A DNA stretch of 64,000 bases. Source: Spirochaetia bacterium (GTDB lineage Bacteria; Spirochaetota; Spirochaetia; CAKZLE01). The position numbers and the translations under genes were made by a program. The stretch's first letter is position 1. Every line of letters begins with the position of its first letter. Positions 9,328-27,471 of this stretch are shown here, piece after piece. The DNA lies in the NCBI GenBank assembly GCA_021736385.1, contig JAIPFY010000003.1, positions 9,828 to 73,827 of the forward strand, read 5' to 3'. The notes under the pieces were generated by a model that made no database searches, was not told the origin of the DNA, and saw nothing but the letters and a program-made list of their open reading frames with translations.

Positions 9328-10794
9328 TTATAGTTTGTCGATGAGCATAGAACATTTTCCCGAAGGGATCGGTAGCGTCTTCTTCTTCTGCTCGTCAAGG
9401 ATATCGATCGTGAAATAGTAGAGCTTCTCGGACTCCAGCCGTATCTCCCAACCACGGGTGTTCTTATTGCTCAAGATGGTGATGAGGTTCCTCTTGAGAG
9501 AGAGATCTTCGATCCCCATGGCCTCCAGCGTCGGCATGACCCAATCCACAGTCTTCCTCGGCAGACTGATCATCAGTCCCACCACATTCTCGATCATCAG
9601 TCCTATGGTCACCAGCCCGATCATGGGCAGGAACTTCTTACGGGGAAAATCCGGATGCCCGGGATACTGTGCCGGTCCCTCTCTCAGGGGTAGGTAGGCC
9701 TCATAGACATCTCCATTTTCCGTGCCATCGGGATGGAGTGTATCAAGGATGAAGTAGAGATGTCTGATCGCACACTCACGGGCGAACTCGAACTCCTGAT
9801 ACCGTTCCAGCCCCTTGATCACCATGAAGGTATGGGAGGGAAGGACAGATCCGCAATACCCGTTGCCATCTTCAGAGAAAGCTTTCTGATCAGCAGCGAT
9901 CGTCGGGAAGGGATTCTCAGTACCAAACACTTCAGGGTCCTTGAGCTGACTGATCAGTCGCTCTGCCCGGTCTTCATTAGGGATCTCTGCAAGCAGCGTC
10001 CAATAGGTACCGATCGTCTTGAGTCGAACCTGTTTCTCCTGTGCATCAAGATCATAATAGAACCCGTCTGCAGCGTTCCACATCAGCGTATTGATCCGGG
10101 TCTTGAACGAGAAGTACTGCCGCTTATAACGGAAGCTGAGTTCCTTGTCATTGAGCACATCACCGATAGCGGACATATACAGCGCATTCACAGCCATCAT
10201 GGCATTGAAGTCTACTGGATAGGCGACCTGCTTACGGGGGAGATTCCCCATGAGCGTCGCAGCCATCGGGACCGAGTAGAGTCCGTTCTCCTGCTTGAAG
10301 GTCTCATCAAGCCAGGTCATATAGTTCTCAAGGACAGGGACGACCTCTTTCAGCCGTTTTTTGTTCCCGACCTTATGGTAGAGGTTGAATTCCACATAGG
10401 CGAACAGCGGGGGGTGTACCCCCTGAGGGTTTTCCTCTGTGAAGACAGGGGAACCATCTTCGATGGAATACTCTCCCCTGATGGCACCGGAAGCTTCCTG
10501 CTTGCTGTAGAAGAAATCAAGCATGGGAAACGGGGAATAGGTCTGGTTGCTGTATACCAGAAAGAAGGAATCCAGGCACGAGTAATACTGATGATACGTG
10601 TCCTGACCATCATATGAGAGATAATGGGTTGGAGATTCAGCTTCTCTCGCGCCTGCTTCCCATCTATCATGAATCCAGAGCCAGGTGCGGTCGTACAGAT
10701 CCACAAAATCCTGATCATAAAAATGCACTGAGGGTACGTTATCCTTTACCAACAAAGACTCCTTTGAACATATTAAATTCCAAAACTCCAACAT
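9328..10794 (-). CDS. glycoside hydrolase, GH63/MGH1 (trehalase-like alpha6/alpha6) family
   Basis: VHPPLFAYVE, PVDFNAMMA, LWNAADGFYYD, TIGTYWTLLA, EAY motifs. True start may be slightly downstream. Confidence 0.7.
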   Translation of the reverse strand: MLEFWNLICSKESLLVKDNVPSVHFYDQDFVDLYDRTWLWIHDRWEAGAREAESPTHYLSYDGQDTYHQYYSCLDSFFLVYSNQTYSPFPMLDFFYSKQEASGAIRGEYSIEDGSPVFTEENPQGVHPPLFAYVEFNLYHKVGNKKRLKEVVPVLENYMTWLDETFKQENGLYSVPMAATLMGNLPRKQVAYPVDFNAMMAVNALYMSAIGDVLNDKELSFRYKRQYFSFKTRINTLMWNAADGFYYDLDAQEKQVRLKTIGTYWTLLAEIPNEDRAERLISQLKDPEVFGTENPFPTIAADQKAFSEDGNGYCGSVLPSHTFMVIKGLERYQEFEFARECAIRHLYFILDTLHPDGTENGDVYEAYLPLREGPAQYPGHPDFPRKKFLPMIGLVTIGLMIENVVGLMISLPRKTVDWVMPTLEAMGIEDLSLKRNLITILSNKNTRGWEIRLESEKLYYFTIDILDEQKKKTLPIPSGKCSMLIDKL

Positions 10795-16921: not shown

Positions 16922-17866
16922 TCAGTCCCCATCGGGGGTCAAGACGATATCTTCGAACCCGGCATCTTCCTTCCTGCCTACCACCCCGACAAGCAGATAC
17001 TGTTTGTTGATGGGATCATAGAGATAGTCCTTCTTGAAGTGAAACCCTTCGATCTCAGAACTCCGTTTGACATGGGTACGGACACCTGTACAGTAGACTC
17101 GCTCATCCCCGATCTGGATATGACTGTCTCCGGAGGGGGAGATGGGGATATCTTCGGCGATGACGCTCAGGATCTTCTGCTCAAGATCCTCGATCGATAT
17201 ATCGGGTAGATCAGGGAAGCTGATGACGAACCCGTGTTTCACATCCGAGTGTAGCACGGGGTTATGATAGTGGTAATCCCTCGCAAGGATCAAACTGGTG
17301 ATATCCTCGGCCGAGTGTGCCATGAGCCGGTACTTGAGGGTCCTGTCGACGACCTTCCGGATACTTTCCGGGGTAGGCCCGAATACGGTAGGACGGGCGA
17401 CGATGACCTCTTCCCCGATCCCGAAGATGATCTGGGCATTATAGCCGAGATAGGGGTAGAGCAGATCGAAGTGCTCGACGACGACCCTGCGATTGTTATC
17501 TATCGCTCTGTTGATCGCGTCGACGATCTCATACCGCTGATGGAAGGCCTTCTCGTACAGATAGTCGATATGGAAGGTGTGACCGGAGAAGAAGTCATCT
17601 TCCGAGAAGGTGAACAGCGGAGTGCTCTTCACATTGACCCCTGAATCATCATTGGTCAGCTCCAGTCCCGGGAAGAGCCCTTTGATCAGCGTGGACTTCC
17701 CCGCTCCTGCATTACCGATGATGGCAATGAGCAGGTCTGAGGGGGCAAGATAGCGCTGAGCGAGCTCCTTTCCGAGTTTGTACAACCGCATACGCCCGCG
17801 AGGGGCGTAGTAGGTGGAGAATATGAGATCTTCTTTTACCGGTTCAGGTCTTCTTTTAGGTGTCAC
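16922..17866 (-). CDS. P-loop NTPase fused to AlaRS/ThrRS second-additional (SAD)-like domain; function unknown
   Basis: GTG start; Walker A GNAGAGKST; C-terminal AHSAEDI and CTGVRTHV resemble the HxxxH/CxGxH editing-site motifs; overlaps upstream gene by 11 bp. Confidence 0.75.
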   Translation of the reverse strand: MTPKRRPEPVKEDLIFSTYYAPRGRMRLYKLGKELAQRYLAPSDLLIAIIGNAGAGKSTLIKGLFPGLELTNDDSGVNVKSTPLFTFSEDDFFSGHTFHIDYLYEKAFHQRYEIVDAINRAIDNNRRVVVEHFDLLYPYLGYNAQIIFGIGEEVIVARPTVFGPTPESIRKVVDRTLKYRLMAHSAEDITSLILARDYHYHNPVLHSDVKHGFVISFPDLPDISIEDLEQKILSVIAEDIPISPSGDSHIQIGDERVYCTGVRTHVKRSSEIEGFHFKKDYLYDPINKQYLLVGVVGRKEDAGFEDIVLTPDGD

Positions 17867-18179
17867 ACGAAAACTCCATGAGCATCAGCGGTGCATGTTG
17901 CTGTGCACCGTAGATATCGGTCTCTCCAAAGGCTCCTGAGGGGATCCTGCGTCTCATCGTCACTTTGACCGCATGTGCCGGTTCGAAATAGATGATCTGC
18001 AGGATATCCTCCACCGGGACATGGTAGAGGGCAGCCATACGTTCAGGGGTTATGACCTGCGCTCTCTTCAGTATAGCATAGGCATCTTCGTCTTTGCAGA
18101 TGATATCGAGGGTAAGTTCGAAGGGGCCTGCGTTCTTTGATCTGATCACCCGTGCCAGGTCTATGAGTCTTCTGTTCAT
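17856..18179 (-). CDS. DUF4387 family protein
   Basis: VIRSKNAGPFELTLDI and GETDIYGAQQHAPL signature. Confidence 0.88.
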   Translation of the reverse strand: MNRRLIDLARVIRSKNAGPFELTLDIICKDEDAYAILKRAQVITPERMAALYHVPVEDILQIIYFEPAHAVKVTMRRRIPSGAFGETDIYGAQQHAPLMLMEFSCDT

Positions 18180-19549
18180 AGGAGGACCTCCTTGACCGGA
18201 AAGAACGTGTCATCCGGCTTCTGCTGCAGAATATGGTAGAGCGAGAATTCGTAGACCTCACCGGTCGATATATCAGAGGGCGAGAAGGGGAATGCCAGGT
18301 TCCCTGCTGTTGCGATCCTGCCGCGATACCCATAGTGCAGCAGTGTCGAACGCATCAGGCTGCACACCGAGTCGGCATCTTCCTGCCTCCTGCCCAGCAC
18401 ATCGATAAGCAGCACACTCTCATGTCCTTCATATACCGGATTCGGTTCCATGGGTCCCATCACCCCGTTCCTTCCGTACTGGTGTACACAGATCTGTGAA
18501 TCTGCAAAGAGCTGCGGGACCAGCTTCGCCACCCGCTGCTGCACCTGCTCGATGATCTCATCAAGCTGTCCGATCATGATCGGATCCCTCGTCGCTGCGA
18601 TGGAGATCGTCCTGTACCCTGTGAGTCGGGCACCTTCAAGCTTGATGGTATAGTGCTCTGAGGGTTCGAACACCGACCCGTAGACCTCAACACCATCAGC
18701 GATCTCTCGAAATTCAGTATGTTCAAGATTGAGCATGCCTCCCGGTCCCGGCAGGTGGTAGGGGTCCGATTTCTCATAGAGGGTATGGGCACAGGTCGAC
18801 TCTTCAGTGAATCTCCGCTCATCACTGACGGTCTTCAGGGTGAAATGGTCCTCGTCTATGATCCCTATGACACAATCCGAACCGGATCCCGGAGTGGCGG
18901 CAATGGCGGCACACTCGAGGATCTTGCCGGCATGCAGGCAGAGTCCGGGATCGAAGCCCATACGGATGGGGACCGCGGCAAAACATGCAGGATCATAGGC
19001 TCTTCCAGCCAGGATGATGTCACAGCCCCGGTCAAGGGCATCGATCATGGGTTCATGTCCCATCTGTGCCACGATGTTGGTAGTCTGTGCAAGATACTCC
19101 TGTGTCAGTTCAGGGACTCCTGCAAGAGGGGTGATACCCCCATCTGCCAGCCGTTGTGCTACGATGGAGCCGGGTATGTCGGCATAGATCACTCCGATCT
19201 TGCACGCCCCGAGCTTCTGCTCCTGCACGATCTCCCTGATGATTTCCAGGCACCAGTCTACATGGACTTTGGCTCCGCTGCCTCCGGCGGTACCGATGAT
19301 CACCGGGATCCTTCGAGACAGTCCTGCCTCAATCATATAGGAGAGGTCCCTCTTCACTCCGTTCCGGTTCGTGAAGGGTTTACCTGCTCCGAGATAGTAG
19401 GGTCCGGGATCTGTCGATCCCCCGTCAACGGCTATCACATCAGGATCACAGGCAAGAGCCCGCTCGAAGGAGCTCTCAGGGAATCCGTATCCGAGGATCG
19501 CCGTAGGCGACAGGATCGTACAGGTTCTTCTCTCATGCATATGCTTCAC
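18176..19549 (-). CDS. DUF1446 / AtuA-like protein
   Basis: ILGYGFPESSF, DGGSTDPGPYYLG, GTAGGSG, VAQMGHEP, GRAYDP, HAGKILECAA, HTLYEKSDP. Confidence 0.88.
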   Translation of the reverse strand: MKHMHERRTCTILSPTAILGYGFPESSFERALACDPDVIAVDGGSTDPGPYYLGAGKPFTNRNGVKRDLSYMIEAGLSRRIPVIIGTAGGSGAKVHVDWCLEIIREIVQEQKLGACKIGVIYADIPGSIVAQRLADGGITPLAGVPELTQEYLAQTTNIVAQMGHEPMIDALDRGCDIILAGRAYDPACFAAVPIRMGFDPGLCLHAGKILECAAIAATPGSGSDCVIGIIDEDHFTLKTVSDERRFTEESTCAHTLYEKSDPYHLPGPGGMLNLEHTEFREIADGVEVYGSVFEPSEHYTIKLEGARLTGYRTISIAATRDPIMIGQLDEIIEQVQQRVAKLVPQLFADSQICVHQYGRNGVMGPMEPNPVYEGHESVLLIDVLGRRQEDADSVCSLMRSTLLHYGYRGRIATAGNLAFPFSPSDISTGEVYEFSLYHILQQKPDDTFFPVKEVLL

Positions 19550-20777
19550 CTCTTCTCATCAGTTCGATGGTCCGTGCCATCTCGTTCCTTACGATCGTCA
19601 GGCCTTCGTCAAAGCCCATACCCGGTTTGATCAGCATGCGCTCCGGTCGTGTCGCAAGGGCTGCATGAACAGACCGTGCTGCCGATATATCGGTCTCATT
19701 GCAGGTCCCTCCCTGATACGCCTCGATACCATGGGCTTTGCAGTAGAGCACACTTTCGATGGTATTATGGATGCTCCCGAGATCAGGCGTCTTGATCTGC
19801 ACCATATGGCAGGATCTGGCATCGGTGAAGTCTCGGATATCTTCGATGGTGTTGCACCACTCGTCCGCTACGAGCTTCACAGGGGATCCTGCTGCTTTCA
19901 GCGACTCAGTGAGCGCTGTGAGCATCTGTATCTGTTCCGGCTTCCCACCCATATCCACAGGTCCTTCGATATAGAGTTCATGCGTTCCGGCATCCTCCTG
20001 CAGTCCGGCAAGATAGTCGGTCATGGCTGACAGGTCATGATCGAAGATCATCCCGATCGTACCGTAGACATCGATATGGATCACCGGTGAGTACCCGGGG
20101 CGCTGCTGCGCTATTCGATCACGGATCCAGCGGATATACTGCTTGAGCAGCCGGCCGTCTCGACCGAGCTTGGTCTCTATCTCATTGATCAGCCCATGAG
20201 GCAGCACATCCACACCTTTGAGGATCATCTTATCGACAGCGGCATACCGGTCATCACCGCACTGGCCGAACAGCTCGATCGGCTGCGGTATGATCGGCAG
20301 CCGGTATTCACTGCAGATCTGCTGGACCGGCAGCTTGCCGTGAGCGATGGAAACAGCCTCAAGGAGGGCCTGTGAGATACCGTACCGTACAGCGGTATGC
20401 AGTCGTCTCCCGTCGATCATCACCGTATCGATCATGGTTGCCAGCTCGATGAACGATGAGAGTTCTTTTCCGATGAGCAGAGGTGCTACCTCTCTCATGA
20501 TCTCCGGGATAAAGGTCTCAGCGAGGAAGAGCGGGTCCCTGCCTCCGGTACCCGAGTACTGTACCGCAGCACAGTCCCCGACGGCAAAACGACCGTTTTC
20601 CAGCAGCAGTATGATTGACAGCGCCTCGCCGGCCATACGGACTGAGCTGAATCCGGGTGTCCTGACTTCCCCGTCATAGAAGAACCCGTCGTGGGCGATC
20701 CCCTCTTTTATGGCCTTCTGATCGTCAAAATAGAACCCGGAACTTCCCGGGACACAGATCACATCGGTTATTCTCAT
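19533..20777 (-). CDS. mal: methylaspartate ammonia-lyase
   Basis: FYFDDQKAIK, GDCAAVQYSG, LHTAVRYGISQA, DVLPHGLIN, VADEWCNT, QIKTPDLG, GGTCNETD, KPGMGFDEG. Confidence 0.96.
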   Translation of the reverse strand: MRITDVICVPGSSGFYFDDQKAIKEGIAHDGFFYDGEVRTPGFSSVRMAGEALSIILLLENGRFAVGDCAAVQYSGTGGRDPLFLAETFIPEIMREVAPLLIGKELSSFIELATMIDTVMIDGRRLHTAVRYGISQALLEAVSIAHGKLPVQQICSEYRLPIIPQPIELFGQCGDDRYAAVDKMILKGVDVLPHGLINEIETKLGRDGRLLKQYIRWIRDRIAQQRPGYSPVIHIDVYGTIGMIFDHDLSAMTDYLAGLQEDAGTHELYIEGPVDMGGKPEQIQMLTALTESLKAAGSPVKLVADEWCNTIEDIRDFTDARSCHMVQIKTPDLGSIHNTIESVLYCKAHGIEAYQGGTCNETDISAARSVHAALATRPERMLIKPGMGFDEGLTIVRNEMARTIELMRRGEAYA

Positions 20778-22210
20778 GTTGGTCTCCCTACCAGTCTTCC
20801 TTTGCTGATGGCATAGATATCATCGATCACCATCTGAAAGCTTGCTTCTCGTTTCTCCTGCTTCGCACGATGGGCGATCTTATCCCTGTGGTATGCGAGG
20901 ATGTCACTGCTCAACGGCATGCTCCCTGTATCAAAGAGTCGTACCGCCCCGTCGTTATCACGTACCGGCAATACCTTTCCGGCATTGCACACGGCAGGTG
21001 CGAACGGCACATCGATCACCCCGGCTTCAAAGGCTCGCACCGCTCCTGCTGCCAGGTCTCCTGCTCCCAGTTCGATCACTGATCGCATGAGACAGGTCAC
21101 TTCACTGGTGATCAGCTCTTCTTCCTCGCTGATCCGCAGCGTATCAAGGGGAGAGAGGTCAGCTACCATCTGGATGCTCTGCCGTGTCGCAAGCAACCCG
21201 TCCCGGTTCGCCTCTTTCGTGGGTATCCCCAGAGCTTCGTGGGGTGTCTTCACGATCACCTTGGTTGCACCTGATAACGAAGCCACCACCCCTCCCCATG
21301 AGATGACGGCAAAGGCCTGTGCCTCAGATTCAGGGAATCCCCCCATCCATTGATGGAACACCGTCGACAGCTGATAATCGGTATAGCCCATCTGCCTGAA
21401 GTAGCCGTCAGCAAGCTTCTTCAGCACACGCATCGCTGCGATGTCCTGGACCAGATTCCCCGCCTGACCATACCCGAGTGTCAGGGACTTCACTCCCTGT
21501 TCTAGAGCCAGGAGCCCCTCGATGATAGCGACGGTATGGCTCACACAGGGAGGCACCAGTGTCCCCGAGAGCGGTCCGAACGGTTCCCGGTTGATACTGC
21601 AGCCATGGGCTTCGTAGATACCCACCAGATGGTCGACATACTGCCAGTCACGGATGGACTTCTCCAACGGGACGTTCTTTGCGTAGGGGATGTTATAGGA
21701 GATCCCTCCCCCTTCATAGGAGGTGAACCCTCCTGCAAGTGCGATCTCTGTCAACAGCCGTGCATCGGGAGTCCCGTGCCTGATCTCCACCGGTTTATCC
21801 AGCGCCTCTATGATGCTTCGACAGCCGTGTACCCCATGATTGACAGCGGGGAACCCGTTGAGCAGAGAGCGCTGAGCCTGCTCGGAACGCTCGATGCCCT
21901 TCTGTGCATCTGCATACTTGTTCTGTCTGGTATAGGCATCGATGGTGGTAGGCAGCAGATCAGATTCCTCCTGCAGAAAACTCAGCAGACGGATGTGTTC
22001 ATCCACCAGGGCTACCCCGGCCCGCGGCTGGAGGAGGACTACCTGTTGATCAAGAGCTTCCTGCAGCCGTATCGAGCAGACCTTCTTCTTCGGCAGACTC
22101 TGATGGAAGGCAAAGGCCTCTTCCAGGTCCACCTCACTCCCGGTCGGCCATGACTGCAGCACGGTCTTTCGTTCTTCGGTGAACTTCTGTGTATCAAGTC
22201 CAGTATTCAT
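20774..22210 (-). CDS. glmE: glutamate (methylaspartate) mutase, epsilon subunit
   Basis: QPRAGVA, LPTTIDAYTRQN, LLNGFPAVNHG, RHGTPDARLL, GGISYNIPYAK, NREPFGPLSGTLVPP, HQWMGGFP, IVKTPHEA. Confidence 0.97.
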   Translation of the reverse strand: MNTGLDTQKFTEERKTVLQSWPTGSEVDLEEAFAFHQSLPKKKVCSIRLQEALDQQVVLLQPRAGVALVDEHIRLLSFLQEESDLLPTTIDAYTRQNKYADAQKGIERSEQAQRSLLNGFPAVNHGVHGCRSIIEALDKPVEIRHGTPDARLLTEIALAGGFTSYEGGGISYNIPYAKNVPLEKSIRDWQYVDHLVGIYEAHGCSINREPFGPLSGTLVPPCVSHTVAIIEGLLALEQGVKSLTLGYGQAGNLVQDIAAMRVLKKLADGYFRQMGYTDYQLSTVFHQWMGGFPESEAQAFAVISWGGVVASLSGATKVIVKTPHEALGIPTKEANRDGLLATRQSIQMVADLSPLDTLRISEEEELITSEVTCLMRSVIELGAGDLAAGAVRAFEAGVIDVPFAPAVCNAGKVLPVRDNDGAVRLFDTGSMPLSSDILAYHRDKIAHRAKQEKREASFQMVIDDIYAISKGRLVGRPT

Positions 22211-23619
22211 GATGGTTCTCCATGTCGGTCGACTTTCTGTAGTGCGTGCTCGAACAGCAGCTGTCTCACCTGCCCGGGATCAGCGTTCCGTACATGCGCA
22301 AGCAGCGGTACGATATATGATTCATCGTACCAGAGCGATACGGTACGGGGGACCAGTGAGATGGCATGCGGCTCACACAGTCCCTGCTGAAGCAGCTCGG
22401 GAGCCTGTCTGCGGATCGTCCGTACGACCCCGCCGCTGATGACCAGCTCTTTGAGTGATGTGAGATTCTTTCCCTGCTGCATATACTGCAGCCCTTCGGG
22501 GGTATAGATCGGTCTGAGGCTCCCTGCATGCCGGGCGAAGGAGAGAGAGCTGCACAGCGATGCGATCCTTCTCTCATAGACGAGCTCAGCGGCAGTCAGG
22601 GGAATCCGTTCGATGGACCCCGTCACCTCTTCGGCATATGCTCTCAGTCCCTCTGGATCAGGCATACCGAATCGCTGCGCCCATGCTGCTGCCTGCAGGG
22701 CATTCAGCCGCATGCCAAGATCCCCTTCGACACTTCTTGAGATCCTCTGCGGGCTGATACCACGATGGAAGACGGGGATACCTTCATATTGATCAAGGAT
22801 CGGGTCTTTCACCGCGGTGTAGCAGTCTGTCGTAGCCCCTCCGATATCGAGGAGGCCCCAGTCCGCCGAAAGCAGCGGCCCGTCAGAGAGTCTCTCCACG
22901 AGTTCGAAGACACTTCCGGGAGTAGGTGTCGGCAGGCTCTGCAGTACCTCGCAGGCGCGCTGCAGCCCCTTGCCCTGGATGATCTTCTCCATGAAGACTG
23001 TCTTGATGACTTCTCTGACTTCGTGCAGTTCAGGTGCTTCGATCACCGGCATGATATTGTCACAGCAGATCAGTTCGATAGCATTCCGAGCTTCTGAGAT
23101 CAGAGTCTTCACCGCAGGTGCGACATCCCTGTTCCCTGCATAGATCATCACCGTCGGGATCTTCAGATCCGCCAGTGCTCTGGCATTCTCCAGGATATAG
23201 CCCCTGTTCCCCCCGTCAGTACCTCCTGTGAAGAGGATGATGTCAGGTCGCTGGTCTTCGATGTACTGGATATCTTCTCTGCTGATGCGATAGGCTATGC
23301 TGTGGACCAGTTTCGCCCCTGCCGAGAGTGCTGCCTCTTTTGCCAGCCGTTCGGTGAAGGAGGGTACGAGTCCTATGGAGATGATACTCAAGCCCCCATG
23401 AGCCGATGATGAGAAGCCGATGTTCGGATCCTGTGTCACGGCTGCAGCCCGCAGCCGCTGATAGATCGAGATGCAGGCATCGGAGACGTCTTCGCGTACG
23501 GTGGGTTGCTCGAACCGTTCGATCAGCTCAAGATGGCGATCCTCATGTTCAAGGAACAGGGCTCCTTTGGTCCATGTAGATCCGATATCGATCCCTATAT
23601 GCTCTGTGTACGGCATCAT
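22207..23619 (-). CDS. glmL: glutamate mutase L (GlmL/MutL-type reactivating factor)
   Basis: IDIGSTWTK, SSSAHGGL, AALSAGA, LFTGGTDGG, PTPTP, DIGGATTD, RSVEGDLGMR; lies between the S and E subunits. Confidence 0.92.
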   Translation of the reverse strand: MMPYTEHIGIDIGSTWTKGALFLEHEDRHLELIERFEQPTVREDVSDACISIYQRLRAAAVTQDPNIGFSSSAHGGLSIISIGLVPSFTERLAKEAALSAGAKLVHSIAYRISREDIQYIEDQRPDIILFTGGTDGGNRGYILENARALADLKIPTVMIYAGNRDVAPAVKTLISEARNAIELICCDNIMPVIEAPELHEVREVIKTVFMEKIIQGKGLQRACEVLQSLPTPTPGSVFELVERLSDGPLLSADWGLLDIGGATTDCYTAVKDPILDQYEGIPVFHRGISPQRISRSVEGDLGMRLNALQAAAWAQRFGMPDPEGLRAYAEEVTGSIERIPLTAAELVYERRIASLCSSLSFARHAGSLRPIYTPEGLQYMQQGKNLTSLKELVISGGVVRTIRRQAPELLQQGLCEPHAISLVPRTVSLWYDESYIVPLLAHVRNADPGQVRQLLFEHALQKVDRHGEPS

Positions 23620-23629
23620 GTTCTCTCTT

Positions 23630-24082
23630 TCAACCTGCCCTGTGGCGTTTCCCGTTCCTGCTGGCCATGATATCATCACGCAGCAGCTGAGCCTGATCTG
23701 TCAGTTCATTGTGGGAACCTGAGAACACGCGATCGAAGCCCATGTCGAGGAACTTCTGTTCCACTGCTGTCTGATCGGTCTTTCCCACGACCAGATTCCC
23801 TCCCAGATAGAGCACCACGTGATCGAGCCCCCGCTCCAGACAACGGTCCCTGAATCCTTCACAGTCTATCTCAGCATGTCCGTAGAGGGAGGAGACCAGG
23901 ATGGCTTCCGCTCCTGTCTCTATGGCTGCATCGATGAACTCATCCTGACTTACCATGACCCCAAGATTCGTCACAGAGAATCCCTCTGCACTGAAATATC
24001 GTTCCAGGATCTTGTTCCCGACAGCGTGACAGTCCGATCCGATCACCCCGAGCACCACATTGATCTGTTCCATAGTATCCAT
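23630..24082 (-). CDS. mamA: glutamate mutase sigma subunit, B12-binding (GlmS/MutS/MamA)
   Basis: VLGVIGSDCHAVGNKI (DxHxxG), VSSLYGH, LYLGGNLVVG. Confidence 0.96.
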   Translation of the reverse strand: MDTMEQINVVLGVIGSDCHAVGNKILERYFSAEGFSVTNLGVMVSQDEFIDAAIETGAEAILVSSLYGHAEIDCEGFRDRCLERGLDHVVLYLGGNLVVGKTDQTAVEQKFLDMGFDRVFSGSHNELTDQAQLLRDDIMASRNGKRHRAG

Positions 24083-24085
24083 TTC

Positions 24086-25072
24086 CTATCTTCCTGCTTC
24101 CATGAGTCGTGATATCTGCTGTTCGATATAGATCAGAGATCCCCGTTCCATCTGATAGACGAAGTTGATGATCGATCCGCCCCCGCGAGTATACTCCTCG
24201 AGTTCGTTCGCATACGCTGACAGATGTGCAGCTCCATCGGGAGGGATGATGATGATATCCTTATCACTGAGGAACTCGCCGATCCTGGCTGCCTTCTGAT
24301 AGGTAAGTGTCCGTATCTTCCCGCTGAAGATCCCCAGAGACCGCAGCCTCTGACGTATGATACGTTCGAATATCCTGCTTTCGCAGATGATGCCCACTCG
24401 GCTCTGCTCTCTGATCGAGGCAAGGTCGATGATCGTCTGGTAGTTCGGAGCCACAGCAGCCTGAAAGATCTTCTCACGGCTTTCCGGCAGCAGCCCGGTC
24501 AGTTCTGCATAATGGGTCGTTGTCGTCAGGATCAGGTCATAGACCTTCAAGGACTCTGCAGCGTGAGGGTCATTGACGATATCGTCAAGCAGATAGTCGT
24601 GGATGGTGATCTTCGAGATGTAGCTCAGCTGCCGATGAAAGATCTCAAGCGATTCAGGGTTGCAGTCCACCGTAGCGATGGAGAGATTGAGCTGTCTGCT
24701 CTTTCGCTCCATCATGATGATCTGCATGAGGTTCTGTATCTCCCGATCTTCGAATCGCAGTCTCGTCAGCTGGTCCAGGACCTCTTCTATGAGGGCTACC
24801 GCCTGTTCCTTCCTTCCCTCTGACTGGATCTCATGTTCAGAGGAGACAAAGCTTCCCCGTCCCTGGGTGATCTCTATCACCTTGTTGCTCGCCAGCTCCA
24901 TATAGGCTTTCTTAATCGTCCCGCGTGCTATGCCCAGGGAGTCAGCCAGGGCGCGTTCTGCAGGGAGCTTATCGCCAGGATTCAGTATACCATCCTGTAC
25001 CATTTTTGTTATCTGCATGGTAATCTGTCGGTAAATCGGCGTGCTCTGTTCTTTATCGATATACAGGTCCAT
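24086..25072 (-). CDS. GntR family transcriptional regulator (YtrA-like HTH, long C-terminal effector domain)
   Basis: PIYRQI...LNPGDKLPAERALADSLGIARGTIKKAY...QGRGSFVS. Confidence 0.92.
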   Translation of the reverse strand: MDLYIDKEQSTPIYRQITMQITKMVQDGILNPGDKLPAERALADSLGIARGTIKKAYMELASNKVIEITQGRGSFVSSEHEIQSEGRKEQAVALIEEVLDQLTRLRFEDREIQNLMQIIMMERKSRQLNLSIATVDCNPESLEIFHRQLSYISKITIHDYLLDDIVNDPHAAESLKVYDLILTTTTHYAELTGLLPESREKIFQAAVAPNYQTIIDLASIREQSRVGIICESRIFERIIRQRLRSLGIFSGKIRTLTYQKAARIGEFLSDKDIIIIPPDGAAHLSAYANELEEYTRGGGSIINFVYQMERGSLIYIEQQISRLMEAGR

Positions 25073-25137: not shown

Positions 25138-25229
25138 GTTTTTTTACTTTTTTTATTCCTGCGGTGTGGCTTTTTTCTTCTGAGTGTTTATACTCTTCTA
25201 GTAAGCTATCATCAACAAAGGGGATCATT

Positions 25230-26699
25230 ATGGATAAGAACACAGAAAAGACGACCAAAGACGACCAGGTCATGTACTATTTCAGGGAGATATCCAAGAT
25301 ACCCCGTGAGTCAGGCAATGAAGCGGCCATACGCCAGTATCTGATCGATTTCGCCACAGCACACAGTCTATGGCATGTGGTCGATCAGGCAGGTAATGTG
25401 ATCATACGAAAGGAGGGGTCTCCAGGGAAGGAGAAGATCGCACCGATCGCTCTTCAGGGTCATATGGATATGGTCTGTGTCAAAGATGAAGGATATGAAC
25501 ATGATTTTACCAGAGATCCCCTGCAGCTGCAGATAGACGGTGACTACCTCACAGCAAAGGGGACGACTCTGGGAGCTGATAACGGTATTGCCATCGCGAT
25601 GGTACTGGCTCTCTTCTCTGATGCCGAAGCGGTACATGGTCCACTGGAGGGGGTGTTCACCGTCTCCGAGGAGACCGGACTCGGCGGCGCGACGGATCTG
25701 GAGATACAGTACATCCAGAGCAGGAGACTGATCAATCTCGACTCTGAAGAGGAAGGGATCTTCTATATCGGTTGTGCAGGCGGGGGAGAGGTCTCAGGGA
25801 CCCTTACTCCGGCACTCACCATGCCATCAGAGGATGAACAGGCATGGAGACTGACCCTCTCCGGGTTCACCGGTGGTCATTCGGGTGCTGAGATCCATAC
25901 GGGAAGGGGGAATGCGATACTTTGTGGAGTGCGAATGCTCAAACGTCTGGACCGCACCTTCCCGATCGCCCTCGCTTCCATGTCCGGAGGAAGTAAACAC
26001 AACGTGATCCCAAGCACGTTCTCCTGCACCTTCACCGTCCCGAAGGAGGCTGACGCTACGGTAGAGGCTCTGGTTGAGGAGATGCAGCAGGCTCTTCACG
26101 ATGAACTGGCAGTCCAGGACCCGCACGCAGCTATCAGTGCAGTGAAGACCGAACTTCCCGGACAGGTCCTGACCAGAGAGCAGTCTGCCTCCATCATTGA
26201 TGCATTGTATCTGACCCCGCATGGTGTGATCTCGATGAGCAGCAGGCTCGATGGCCTGGTAGAGACATCCAACAATCTGGCTATCGTCCGCCTTGACCAG
26301 AATTCCTGCACCTTCATCGCAAGCCAGAGATCATCGATCGCCTCTGCCCGTGATGAGATAGAGGAACGAACCTGTACCGCCTTCGAACTCTCTGGGGCCC
26401 TGACCAGCAGGGAGAACAAGTATCCTGCCTGGACACCGAATCCTTCCTCGCCTCTGGCAGAGGTCTGTGCAGAGTTCTACAGACGACATACGGGTAAGGA
26501 ACCGGTAGTCACAGCAATCCATGCAGGGCTTGAATGCGGGATGATCAACAGCAAGGCTGCTGATATGGATTCCATCTCCTTCGGCCCTGATCTGTCCGGT
26601 GTCCACTCGACCGATGAACGCATGAGTATCTCTTCTGCTGCCCGTGTCTATGAGTATCTTCTTGCTCTGCTTGAAGACCTTTCCCGCAGGGCTGACTGA
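25230..26699 (+). CDS. pepD: aminoacyl-histidine dipeptidase (M20C)
   Basis: IPRESGNE, LQGHMDMV, TTLGADNGI, VSEETGL, NLDSEEEG, HAGLECG, SFGPD...VHSTDER. Confidence 0.93.
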   Translation: MDKNTEKTTKDDQVMYYFREISKIPRESGNEAAIRQYLIDFATAHSLWHVVDQAGNVIIRKEGSPGKEKIAPIALQGHMDMVCVKDEGYEHDFTRDPLQLQIDGDYLTAKGTTLGADNGIAIAMVLALFSDAEAVHGPLEGVFTVSEETGLGGATDLEIQYIQSRRLINLDSEEEGIFYIGCAGGGEVSGTLTPALTMPSEDEQAWRLTLSGFTGGHSGAEIHTGRGNAILCGVRMLKRLDRTFPIALASMSGGSKHNVIPSTFSCTFTVPKEADATVEALVEEMQQALHDELAVQDPHAAISAVKTELPGQVLTREQSASIIDALYLTPHGVISMSSRLDGLVETSNNLAIVRLDQNSCTFIASQRSSIASARDEIEERTCTAFELSGALTSRENKYPAWTPNPSSPLAEVCAEFYRRHTGKEPVVTAIHAGLECGMINSKAADMDSISFGPDLSGVHSTDERMSISSAARVYEYLLALLEDLSRRAD

Positions 26700-26700
26700 T

Positions 26701-27471
26701 ATGAACACAGGGCCGGTCATCGGTATCATGGGCAATCGCATCCCGAACGAATCCCGACTGTTCTACGGGATGGAACGGGATTATGTGAATCATGATTATG
26801 TGGAGGCGGTCGAGCGATGTGGGGGGATCCCCTTCATCATTCCCATCTGTGACTCCCCTGAGACGATGATCCGCCTGGTATCACATACCGATGGGGTGCT
26901 GCTCTCAGGGGGGTATGATCTGCACCCGCATACCTACCGGGAGGAGGCTCACCCCCTTCTGGGGTATACCGATCAGCACATCGACACGGTACAGATAGCC
27001 TGTGTGCAGGAGATCATAGCACGGAAGATACCCGTCCTTGGCATCTGCAGGGGACTGCAGGTGCTGAACACCGCGCTTGGAGGGTCTCTCTATCAGGATA
27101 CCAGTCTCATCGAGGGATCGACGTTCAAACATATGCAGCAGGCGAAGCGGGGAGAGACCTCCCATCCTGTGGAGATCGTGCCTCACAGCCGTCTTCAGGA
27201 GCTCTTCGGCAGCCGGGTGATGGTCAACAGCTTCCATCATCAGTGCATCCACAGACTCGGGAATGGACTCAGGATCACAGCACGGGCACCTGACGGAGTC
27301 CCTGAAGCGATCGAACTGATCGACCCCAACTATTTTGCCGTCGGGGTACAGTGGCACCCTGAGATGATGCATGCAGTCTCTGCATCGATGAAACCGCTGT
27401 TTCAGGCCTTTCTTGATGCAGCATCTCAGAGCCCTACTTCCAGGCTTTCACCTGTCGAGCCAGTTCTTTAG
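26701..27471 (+). CDS. gamma-glutamyl-gamma-aminobutyrate hydrolase-like, peptidase C26 (class I glutamine amidotransferase)
   Basis: GVLLSGGYD, LGICRGLQVLN, VNSFHHQ, GVQWHPE (Cys-His-Glu triad). Confidence 0.92.
   Translation: MNTGPVIGIMGNRIPNESRLFYGMERDYVNHDYVEAVERCGGIPFIIPICDSPETMIRLVSHTDGVLLSGGYDLHPHTYREEAHPLLGYTDQHIDTVQIACVQEIIARKIPVLGICRGLQVLNTALGGSLYQDTSLIEGSTFKHMQQAKRGETSHPVEIVPHSRLQELFGSRVMVNSFHHQCIHRLGNGLRITARAPDGVPEAIELIDPNYFAVGVQWHPEMMHAVSASMKPLFQAFLDAASQSPTSRLSPVEPVL

Follow-up and report, generated by a model that had tools for sequence, protein, structure and literature searches.

The 64,000-nucleotide stretch analysed here (the window; positions 9,828 to 73,827 of contig JAIPFY010000003.1, from a Spirochaetia bacterium) bears on its minus strand a group of genes for the methylaspartate route of glutamate catabolism, which ends with a gene specifying a protein of 314 amino acids (aa) and 35 kDa, with two predicted domains (16922..17866, minus strand; hereafter the target gene and protein). 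Its open reading frame (ORF) has a GTG start at 17866 and a stop codon at 16922-16924. A GGAG Shine-Dalgarno sequence, as read from the DNA, lies 7 nt 5′ of the GTG (17874..17877, minus strand), and the reading frame overlaps by 11 bp the stop end of the preceding one, the DUF4387/cmlB ORF (17856-18179). The GTG start and the 11-bp overlap had both been proposed in a first-pass annotation made from the sequence alone, and were confirmed from the ORF list and the DNA. This is no chance ORF, since 2590 database proteins match its product at E ≤ 1e-3; the best 120 are 60-85% identical to it and 300-330 aa long. The public gene call (P0001, 289 aa) begins at Met26, and so drops the segment encoded at 17792-17866 (minus strand) and with it residues 19-25 (YYAPRGR). 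As these residues, located 5′ of the alternative M26 start, are invariant in 25 aligned homologues, the longer GTG-start reading is the right one, and the N-terminus of P0001 has probably been mis-annotated.

The genes of the operon are arranged in the order GntR-GlmS-GlmL-GlmE-Mal-CmlA-CmlB-target, all on the minus strand and tightly packed or overlapping. The first specifies a GntR-family regulator (24086..25072; Pfam GntR), and the same slot is filled in the related loci L001, L003 and L039. It is followed by glmS, for the B12-binding subunit of glutamate mutase (23630..24082; Pfam B12-binding), glmL/mutL, for the mutase accessory protein (22207..23679; Pfam MutL, E 5e-106), glmE, for the E subunit of the mutase (20774..22210; Pfam Met_asp_mut_E, E 6e-208), and mal, for methylaspartate ammonia-lyase (19533..20777; Pfam MAAL_N and MAAL_C). 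The longest glmL ORF, which has a GTG start, overlaps glmS by 50 bp, and residue 30 is the first of its MutL domain; translation of glmL probably starts further downstream. Next come cmlA, of the AtuA family (18176..19549), and cmlB (17856..18179; Pfam DUF4387, E 1e-39), for the large and small subunits of citramalate lyase. The products of this AtuA/DUF1446 and DUF4387 pair match the chains of PDB entries 9ERQ/9EVF deposited as citramalate lyase cmlA and cmlB (9erq_A, 'Citramalate lyase, subunit A', E 2e-170; 9erq_B, 'Citramalate lyase, subunit B', E 6e-31), and the pair is identified on this similarity as CmlAB, which makes the DUF4387 label given to the neighbour in the first-pass annotation outdated. 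In 2015 a gene of this pair was still listed, in the cluster of E. coli O157:H7, as a DUF1446 gene of unknown function (PMC4682846). Because the AtuA/DUF4387 genes match CmlA and CmlB, the operon carries a citramalate lyase that is independent of coenzyme A (CoA); the CmlAB of Raoultella planticola has been used as a lyase that converts citramalate directly into pyruvate and acetate (2026 preprint, bioRxiv 10.64898/2026.01.16.699985). As read from its sequence, the operon is thus predicted to encode the route from glutamate through 3-methylaspartate to mesaconate, and from citramalate to pyruvate and acetate, mesaconase alone being missing; a search for a class I fumarase across the 64-kb window found none. 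The target is the sole member of the operon without an assigned role. A search for sequencing runs that might provide RNA-seq data returned DNA metagenomes alone (lake water, bioreactor) and no RNA-seq.

When one genome per GTDB species was scanned, at least 565 loci, from more than 10 phyla, proved to encode a relative of the target. The best 80 of these were taken for the analysis of gene neighbourhoods; they belong to Spirochaetota, Aminicenantes/Acidobacteriota, Riflebacteria/Ozemobacteraceae, Planctomycetota, Propionivibrio (Betaproteobacteria), Myxococcota, 'Eubacteriales', Latescibacterota and Elusimicrobia, among others. Upstream genes were counted by tblastn with the window proteins in the 54 loci having at least 6.6 kb of upstream sequence, and downstream genes in the 60 having at least 3 kb of downstream sequence. 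The glmS, glmE and mal genes were each present in all 54 loci, glmL in 51, and cmlA and cmlB each in 52, with the target after cmlB in most cases (52 of 54). A linkage of the homologues to methylaspartate or other B12 mutase loci, on which the first-pass annotation had relied, was therefore borne out, glutamate mutase and methylaspartase being present in 54 of 54 informative loci; the target was never found with other B12 mutases, as every informative locus is of the glm-mal type. Its supposed position as the last gene of the operon holds in the window, where a convergent MatE gene comes next, but 46 of the 60 related loci continue with a class I fumarase (mesaconase) gene ≤3 kb downstream of the target. 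A cobO gene, sought by tblastn with E. coli CobO as the query, was found in none of the 80 target loci.

The loci that depart from the common order are instructive. In two of them (L015 and L031) the target directly follows mal, and cmlAB is absent. In a Kofleriaceae locus (L039) the order is GntR-glmS-glmL-TARGET-glmE-mal, after which come a pair of succinyl-CoA-synthetase type and a CitE/HpcH lyase, again without CmlAB, while in a Planctomycetales locus cut by the end of its contig (L030) the target comes immediately after a thiokinase pair and a CitE-type lyase. In these last two (L030 8-3365 and L039 13981-17401), an ATP-grasp_2/Citrate_bind and CoA_binding/Ligase_CoA pair plus the CitE/HpcH lyase replace CmlAB; judging from their domains, these genes look like a CoA-dependent citramalate branch made up of a thiokinase and a citramalyl-CoA lyase. 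Three Planctomycetota loci (L035, L070 and L072) have glmS directly followed by glmE and no glmL, yet keep the target. In L003 the target lies immediately before the mesaconase genes and overlaps them, and in a gut metagenome (L086, a 42%-identical member) it is found ∼4 kb downstream of glm-mal-cmlAB, with its end overlapping the start of the mesaconase gene. The target is absent from the E. coli cluster, glmS-glmL-glmE-mal-cmlA-cmlB-gltP-fumD-cobO, and no target gene is listed in the clostridial methylaspartate clusters of Kronen and Berg (PMC4682846). Some clusters thus have the target but not CmlAB, others have it but not GlmL, and that of E. coli dispenses with it; the target therefore goes with the entire methylaspartate pathway, for which it is optional, rather than with CmlAB, GlmL or a fixed neighbour. 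That the protein is a dedicated component of the methylaspartate route of glutamate catabolism is thus well supported. Its immediate upstream neighbours, to which it is translationally coupled in the window, might have suggested a third CmlAB subunit; this was rejected on distribution, since E. coli has cmlAB without the target and L015, L031 and L039 have the target without cmlAB. The deposited lyase (9ERQ/9EVF) consists of two subunits, and direct cleavage of citramalate has been reported for it.

The protein family is well delimited and strongly conserved. A profile search of 1.84 billion representatives of 50%-identity clusters returned 322 proteins at E ≤ 1e-3, and the top 150 of these comprised a single predominant full-length representative, a few divergent full-length proteins and fragments; no AlaX, ThrRS or TsaE protein was among these 150. 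In sequence space the family therefore stands by itself, and it evolves slowly. The median cross-phylum identity to the window protein was 61% for the target, as compared to 65% for GlmS, 63% for GlmE, 59% for Mal, 58% for CmlA, 55% for CmlB and 35% for the accessory protein GlmL; on these identities the target evolves as a core enzyme does, unlike the accessory chaperone GlmL. Family members are acidic (median isoelectric point 5.9). Conservation was scored in the above-mentioned alignment of 25 homologues, which come from many phyla. Invariant residues were found near the N-terminus (Y19, Y20, A21, P22, R23, G24, R25), after the Walker A motif (F65, P66, G67, L68, L70, T71, N72, D73, D74), in the middle of the ATPase half (T97, F98, H99, D101, R126, R127, V128, E131, H132, F133), at the domain junction (R158, P159, G163, P164), around the first motif of the C-terminal domain (R180, M182, A183, H184, A186, E187, D188) and further on in that domain (H206, S207, D208, C259, T260, G261, R263, H265, G294, V296, G297).

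Some metagenomic contigs bear tandem copies of the family (L087 2-1600, L088 2-1600 and L089 3-1144), the canonical copy being first and a divergent one second (P0142, P0128). In both second copies the Asp of the HxD motif described below is replaced by Val, and P0142 also lacks the His/Glu/Asp/Cys site. The degenerate second copy suggests that the protein acts as a dimer, in these cases with one degenerate subunit. Apparent fusions to CotH, Mob_Pre, response regulator and MAL/fumarase pieces (P0211, P0238, P0153 and P0246) appear to be assembly or gene-call chimeras, and were given no Rosetta-stone value.

The N-terminal half (approximately residues 15-157; 17396..17824, minus strand) resembles the P-loop ATPase TsaE/YjeE by Pfam, Foldseek and phmmer. 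TsaE (PF02367) is the ATPase of TsaBDE, the bacterial complex that makes the tRNA modification N6-threonylcarbamoyladenosine (t6A), in which it resets TsaBD. The Pfam TsaE model matched residues 29-105 with E 2.8e-5 and 24.5 bits, below its cut-off of 26.6, and NCBIfam TIGR00150 scored 19.8 bits, below its cut-off of 60.1. An AlphaFold2 model of the full-length protein had a mean predicted local distance difference test score (pLDDT) of 84.8 and a predicted template modelling score (pTM) of 0.78; when this model was compared with the PDB by Foldseek, the TsaE/YjeE structures 1htw (E 1.9e-6), 1fl9, 6n9a_E (E 6.4e-6), 6nak and 5mvr were recovered for its N-terminal half. The Walker A motif GNAGAGKST noted in the first-pass annotation was confirmed from the DNA at residues 51-59 (17690..17716, minus strand), where G51, G54, G56, K57, S58 and T59 are invariant in the 25 homologues. 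A phmmer alignment to HI0065 spans both the P-loop and the HxD motif, the P-loop contexts being GNAGAGKSTLIKGLFPGL in the target and GDLGAGKTTLTRGMLQGI in HI0065, and the HxD motifs TFHID and YHFD, respectively, with H99 and D101 invariant in the family. Glu131 follows the next strand, at the position of the conserved Glu of TsaE, which we take to be its counterpart. As far as the sequence goes, then, the N-terminal half keeps the Walker A motif, Asp101 and Glu131 of a TsaE/YjeE-type ATPase. The likeness extends to the P-loop fold (1htw, 6n9a_E), the Walker A context GxxGAGKxTLxxG, the HxD motif and the Glu after the next strand. The differences are that the SPT(F/Y) switch motif of TsaE/YjeE is not conserved in the target family, which has its own FPGLELTNDD insertion after the P-loop helix, and that TsaE/YjeE are stand-alone proteins of ∼150 aa that work with TsaB/TsaD in t6A synthesis, whereas the target is a 314-aa fusion encoded in a catabolic operon. 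Neither tsaB nor tsaD was found near the target in any locus annotated with Pfam.

The first-pass annotation had cited MeaB as an example of the NTPase chaperones that B12 mutases often need; the Pfam and Foldseek results give the P-loop half a specific TsaE/YjeE-like identity instead of a MeaB-like one. Pfam MeaB gave weak, P-loop-level matches in 4 of the 25 members (best E 0.039), and no G3E protein was among the Foldseek matches listed for the full-length model; a MeaB-like (SIMIBI/G3E) identity was rejected on these grounds. A CobA-like identity was also rejected, as CobA_CobO_BtuR was absent from the Pfam and NCBIfam matches. The MeaB/MMAA G3E chaperones and GlmL/MutL are likewise nucleotide-hydrolysing accessory proteins specified within adenosylcobalamin mutase operons, but the former have no fold or sequence relationship to the target, and GlmL/MutL is already encoded in the same operon.

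The C-terminal half (residues 158-314; 16925..17395, minus strand) was assigned to the second additional domain (SAD) fold of AlaX and of the editing domain of alanyl-tRNA synthetase (AlaRS) from AlphaFold2 models, Foldseek and weak tRNA_SAD matches. In the full-length model, this half matched the AlaX-type structures 2e1b (E 1.6e-5) and 3kew. When residues 158-314 were modelled alone (pLDDT 84.2), the 12 best PDB matches were all AlaX-M, AlaX-S or derivatives of AlaRS editing domains, with E values of 5e-5 to 5e-3, template modelling (TM) scores of 0.53-0.60 and root mean square deviations of 3.4-4.7 Å. The top matches were 2e1b, an AlaX-M (E 5e-5), 9iuw, 1wnu, 2zze, 1v7o and 3kew, the TM score being ∼0.58-0.60 for 2e1b, 9iuw, 1wnu and 2zze; the 12 also included the designed proteins 3rfn and 3rhu, presumably built on an AlaX-S scaffold. 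Beyond them came chains of mitoribosomal proteins resembling threonyl-tRNA synthetase (ThrRS) and the N2 domain of ThrRS itself (1tje, rank 15, E 0.15), the rest being noise. The SAD fold proposed for this half is therefore borne out in prediction. At the sequence level, Pfam tRNA_SAD (PF07973) gave weak matches in 18 of the 25 members (best E 1.1e-3). A search of the PDB with the whole protein returned only weak TsaE/ABC P-loop matches and no AlaX, and 1.35 Mb of loci, scanned with a regular expression for the canonical HxxxH...CxGxH pattern, gave no usable seed for an AlaX profile. Since sequence searches of the PDB yielded no AlaX, the homology of this domain rests on fold and motifs.

The canonical motifs of the AlaX/AlaRS/ThrRS editing superfamily are HXXXH and CXGXH (PMC12003907). 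E. coli AlaRS carries RLNHSATHLMH and LCGGTHASRTGDIGLFRI where the target carries RLMAHSAEDITS and YCTGVRTHVKRSSEIEGFHF. The counterpart of HxxxH is HSAED (residues 184-188; 17303..17317, minus strand; compare HSATH in AlaRS), in which the second His is replaced by Asp188, invariantly in the 25 homologues, as are H184, A186 and E187; the first-pass annotation had read this substitution correctly, and it was confirmed in the DNA. The same annotation had also recognised a CxGxH-like motif, and CTGVRTH (residues 259-265; 17072..17092, minus strand) is indeed homologous in position, but the motif is CxGxxxH (CxGxRxH), with an insertion of two residues that includes the invariant Arg263; C259, T260, G261 and H265 are invariant as well. 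An hhalign alignment set CTG[VR]TH against CGG--TH of AlaRS, and extended this register to CTG[VR]THVK.SG.I..F against CGG--THASRTGDIGLF; its probability was 2%, and it was used for the motif register alone. In this low-confidence alignment, the AlaRS segment before the Cys motif has no counterpart in the target. In view of the replacement of the second His by Asp and of the two residues inserted between Cys-x-Gly and His, the model and the sequence together indicate that the C-terminal domain is a true but remodelled relative of the AlaX/AlaRS editing domain. It shares the predicted fold and the position of its motifs (HSA.. on the first helix, C.G..TH[VA]..[ST]G.I..F in the SAD part), and differs by HxxxD, CxGxRxH, the fusion to an ATPase, its acidity and a score below Pfam significance. 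The remodelled metal or active site is predicted from the alignment to consist of His184, Asp188, Cys259 and His265, together with the new invariant residues Glu187, Arg263, His206 and Asp208.

To our knowledge, all characterised relatives of both domains act on or with tRNA or rRNA; AlaX and the AlaRS and ThrRS editing domains hydrolyse mischarged aminoacyl-tRNA. The pathway specified by the operon produces in quantity 3-methylaspartate, an analogue of aspartate. The reading that we tentatively favour, as a possible rather than a probable one, is that the target is a proofreading hydrolase, coupled to an ATPase, for 3-methylaspartate that has been esterified to tRNA-Asp or tRNA-Asn by mistake. 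A trans-editing or detoxifying factor against this amino acid, protecting the charging of Asp/Glu-tRNA, was one of the two ideas put forward in the first-pass annotation. The C-terminal domain would keep its ancestral chemistry, the hydrolysis of the ester that links an amino acid to the 3′ adenosine of a tRNA, with its substrate re-specified to the non-proteinogenic, acidic (2S,3S)-3-methylaspartate attached by error to tRNA-Asp or tRNA-Asn by aspartyl-tRNA synthetase (AspRS). The invariant Arg inserted beside the Cys and His ligands (R263) would pair with the extra carboxylate; R263 and R180 are what might be expected of a pocket re-specified to an acidic side chain. By analogy with TsaE resetting TsaBD, the ATPase domain could gate or reset the hydrolase through the binding or release of a macromolecular substrate or partner. 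All that goes beyond fold, motif and linkage in this scheme is what we infer from them. Deacylases of the AlaX family and other tRNA deacylases, such as BesG, AlfB, FthB and CtdA, a canavanine deacylase, sit in clusters for non-canonical amino acids, where they protect the translation of the host (PMC13149037; bioRxiv 10.1101/2024.11.30.626143); the target shares with BesG and AlfB a location in a cluster dealing with a non-canonical amino acid. Its variable position and its presence without CmlAB or GlmL fit a guard of the whole pathway better than a subunit of one enzyme. A bolder version of the proposal, in which the target is the first ATPase-coupled aminoacyl-tRNA proofreading factor and keeps a catabolic intermediate, 3-methylaspartate, out of proteins, is rather unlikely.

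Several observations weigh against the proofreading proposal. We know of no aminoacyl-tRNA deacylase that needs or carries an ATPase, and no report of AspRS accepting 3-methylaspartate was found in the literature searched. The acidity of the family is atypical for RNA binders, and its cross-phylum identity of 61%, equal to that of GlmE and Mal, is above the usual for trans-editing factors. Both canonical Zn motifs of the editing fold are altered. Pfam tRNA_SAD did not match the window protein even at E ≤ 10, and a search of the PDB with a profile of the C-terminal domain gave a weak EF-1beta match and no AlaX. Moreover, the methylaspartate clusters of E. coli/Raoultella and of clostridia lack the target, so the pathway is not generally in need of such protection.

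The main rival, itself unlikely and the second of the ideas in the first-pass annotation, is that the target is an accessory ATPase of glutamate mutase or of the adenosylcobalamin cycle, serving in cofactor loading, exchange or repair, alone or with GlmL. It would dock in the way TsaE does on the ASKHA proteins TsaB/TsaD, and the AlaX-like pocket would be re-used for an adenosyl or amino acid ligand. This is consistent with the strict co-occurrence with glmS and glmE (54 of 54), the location of the target between glmL and glmE in L039, and the fact that the E. coli cluster, which lacks the target, has the adenosyltransferase gene cobO, a gene seen in 0 of 80 target loci. Relatives of TsaE act on partners with an ASKHA fold, and GlmL, which we take to have that fold, weakly matches the actin-like FtsA and Hydantoinase_A_N in Pfam. 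However, mal and cmlAB lie between the target and glmSLE in 52 of 54 loci, and the target persists in the three Planctomycetota clusters without glmL; gene order thus leans mildly towards a pathway-level role rather than a mutase-bound chaperone. In addition, the protein has no similarity to MeaB/G3E, CobA, PduO or EutT, no other B12 mutase was seen at target loci, all the informative ones being glm-mal, and the target evolves as slowly as the catalytic subunits while GlmL is 35% identical across the same loci.

Also improbable, and ranked next, is an ATP-dependent enzyme acting on a small molecule, or a metabolite-repair or sensor protein, for 3-methylaspartate or its erythro isomer, or for a by-product formed from 3-methylaspartate by enzymes that use aspartate. 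Here both domains would contribute to a single composite active site, with the nucleotide facing the His/Asp/Cys/His metal site. Such a role agrees with the invariant polar residues beyond the Zn site (R180, E187, D188, H206, S207, D208, R263 and the LTNDD motif), the compactness of the full-length model (pTM 0.78), the enzyme-like conservation (61%), an acidity unlike that of RNA binders, and the degenerate second tandem copy of some lineages, a pattern known from dimeric ATPases in which one site is dead. Nevertheless, mutase, lyase, mesaconase and CmlAB complete the pathway, with no candidate reaction missing, and we know of no characterised member of the AlaX/ThrRS-editing fold that acts on a free small molecule.

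Finally, it is very unlikely that the target serves to mature or repair a neighbouring enzyme, whether mesaconase, an oxygen-labile [4Fe-4S] enzyme, or the lyase CmlAB: the coupling to cmlB in the window, the position after cmlB in 52 of 54 loci, the class I fumarase gene within 3 kb downstream in 46 of 60 (with stop/start overlaps in L003 and L086) and the conserved set of metal ligands speak for such a role, but CmlAB and FumD occur in E. coli and Raoultella in the absence of the target, evolved strains of E. coli showed mesaconate-dependent growth with the CmlAB of Raoultella (bioRxiv 10.64898/2026.01.16.699985), the target is present without CmlAB in L015, L031 and L039, the 64-kb window has no class I fumarase, and the protein, in which just one Cys is invariant, does not resemble any known Fe-S carrier.

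The methylaspartate pathway is a textbook case of B12-dependent fermentation, and its last missing enzyme, the CoA-independent CmlAB, has been assigned only recently. The target is the one remaining conserved member of the operon without a function, occurs in at least 565 species-level genomes and is conserved like the catalytic subunits. No publication on the protein was found in the literature searched. The first-pass annotation had held that it was not described; this stands for its function, which is absent from that literature, but not for the SAD resemblance, already noted in the automatic name that NCBI gives some homologues ('alanine-tRNA synthetase second additional domain-containing protein'). 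Database names are otherwise inconsistent ('TsaE', 'GTPase SAR1', 'lantibiotic ABC transporter'), and the family has neither a Pfam-A nor an NCBIfam model; the names 'lantibiotic ABC transporter' and 'GTPase SAR1/EF-1beta' were rejected because the matches behind them are at the P-loop level or to a short patch only. What is new, within a known superfamily, is the combination of domains, the altered metal motifs and the exclusive linkage to one pathway, and there is a real chance that the function is new in kind.

If the target were a deacylase, ordinary catabolic intermediates would have to be seen as a threat to translational fidelity, and an energy-coupled type would be added to the known editing factors; 3-methylaspartate, an aspartate look-alike, can reach high levels in glutamate fermentation. 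Self-resistance by means of a tRNA deacylase would then extend from the biosynthesis of natural products to central fermentative metabolism. If it were instead a mutase factor, it would represent a new type of helper for B12 enzymes, unrelated to MeaB or the reactivases. The gene may also matter when the pathway is transplanted, as has already occurred with CmlAB in synthetic one-carbon metabolism, since most natural versions of the pathway include it. Upstream of the GntR/glm operon and divergent from it, the window contains genes for an M20-family peptidase and a C26 gamma-glutamyl-hydrolase-like amidotransferase (25164-27471, plus strand), which could supply the pathway with free glutamate.

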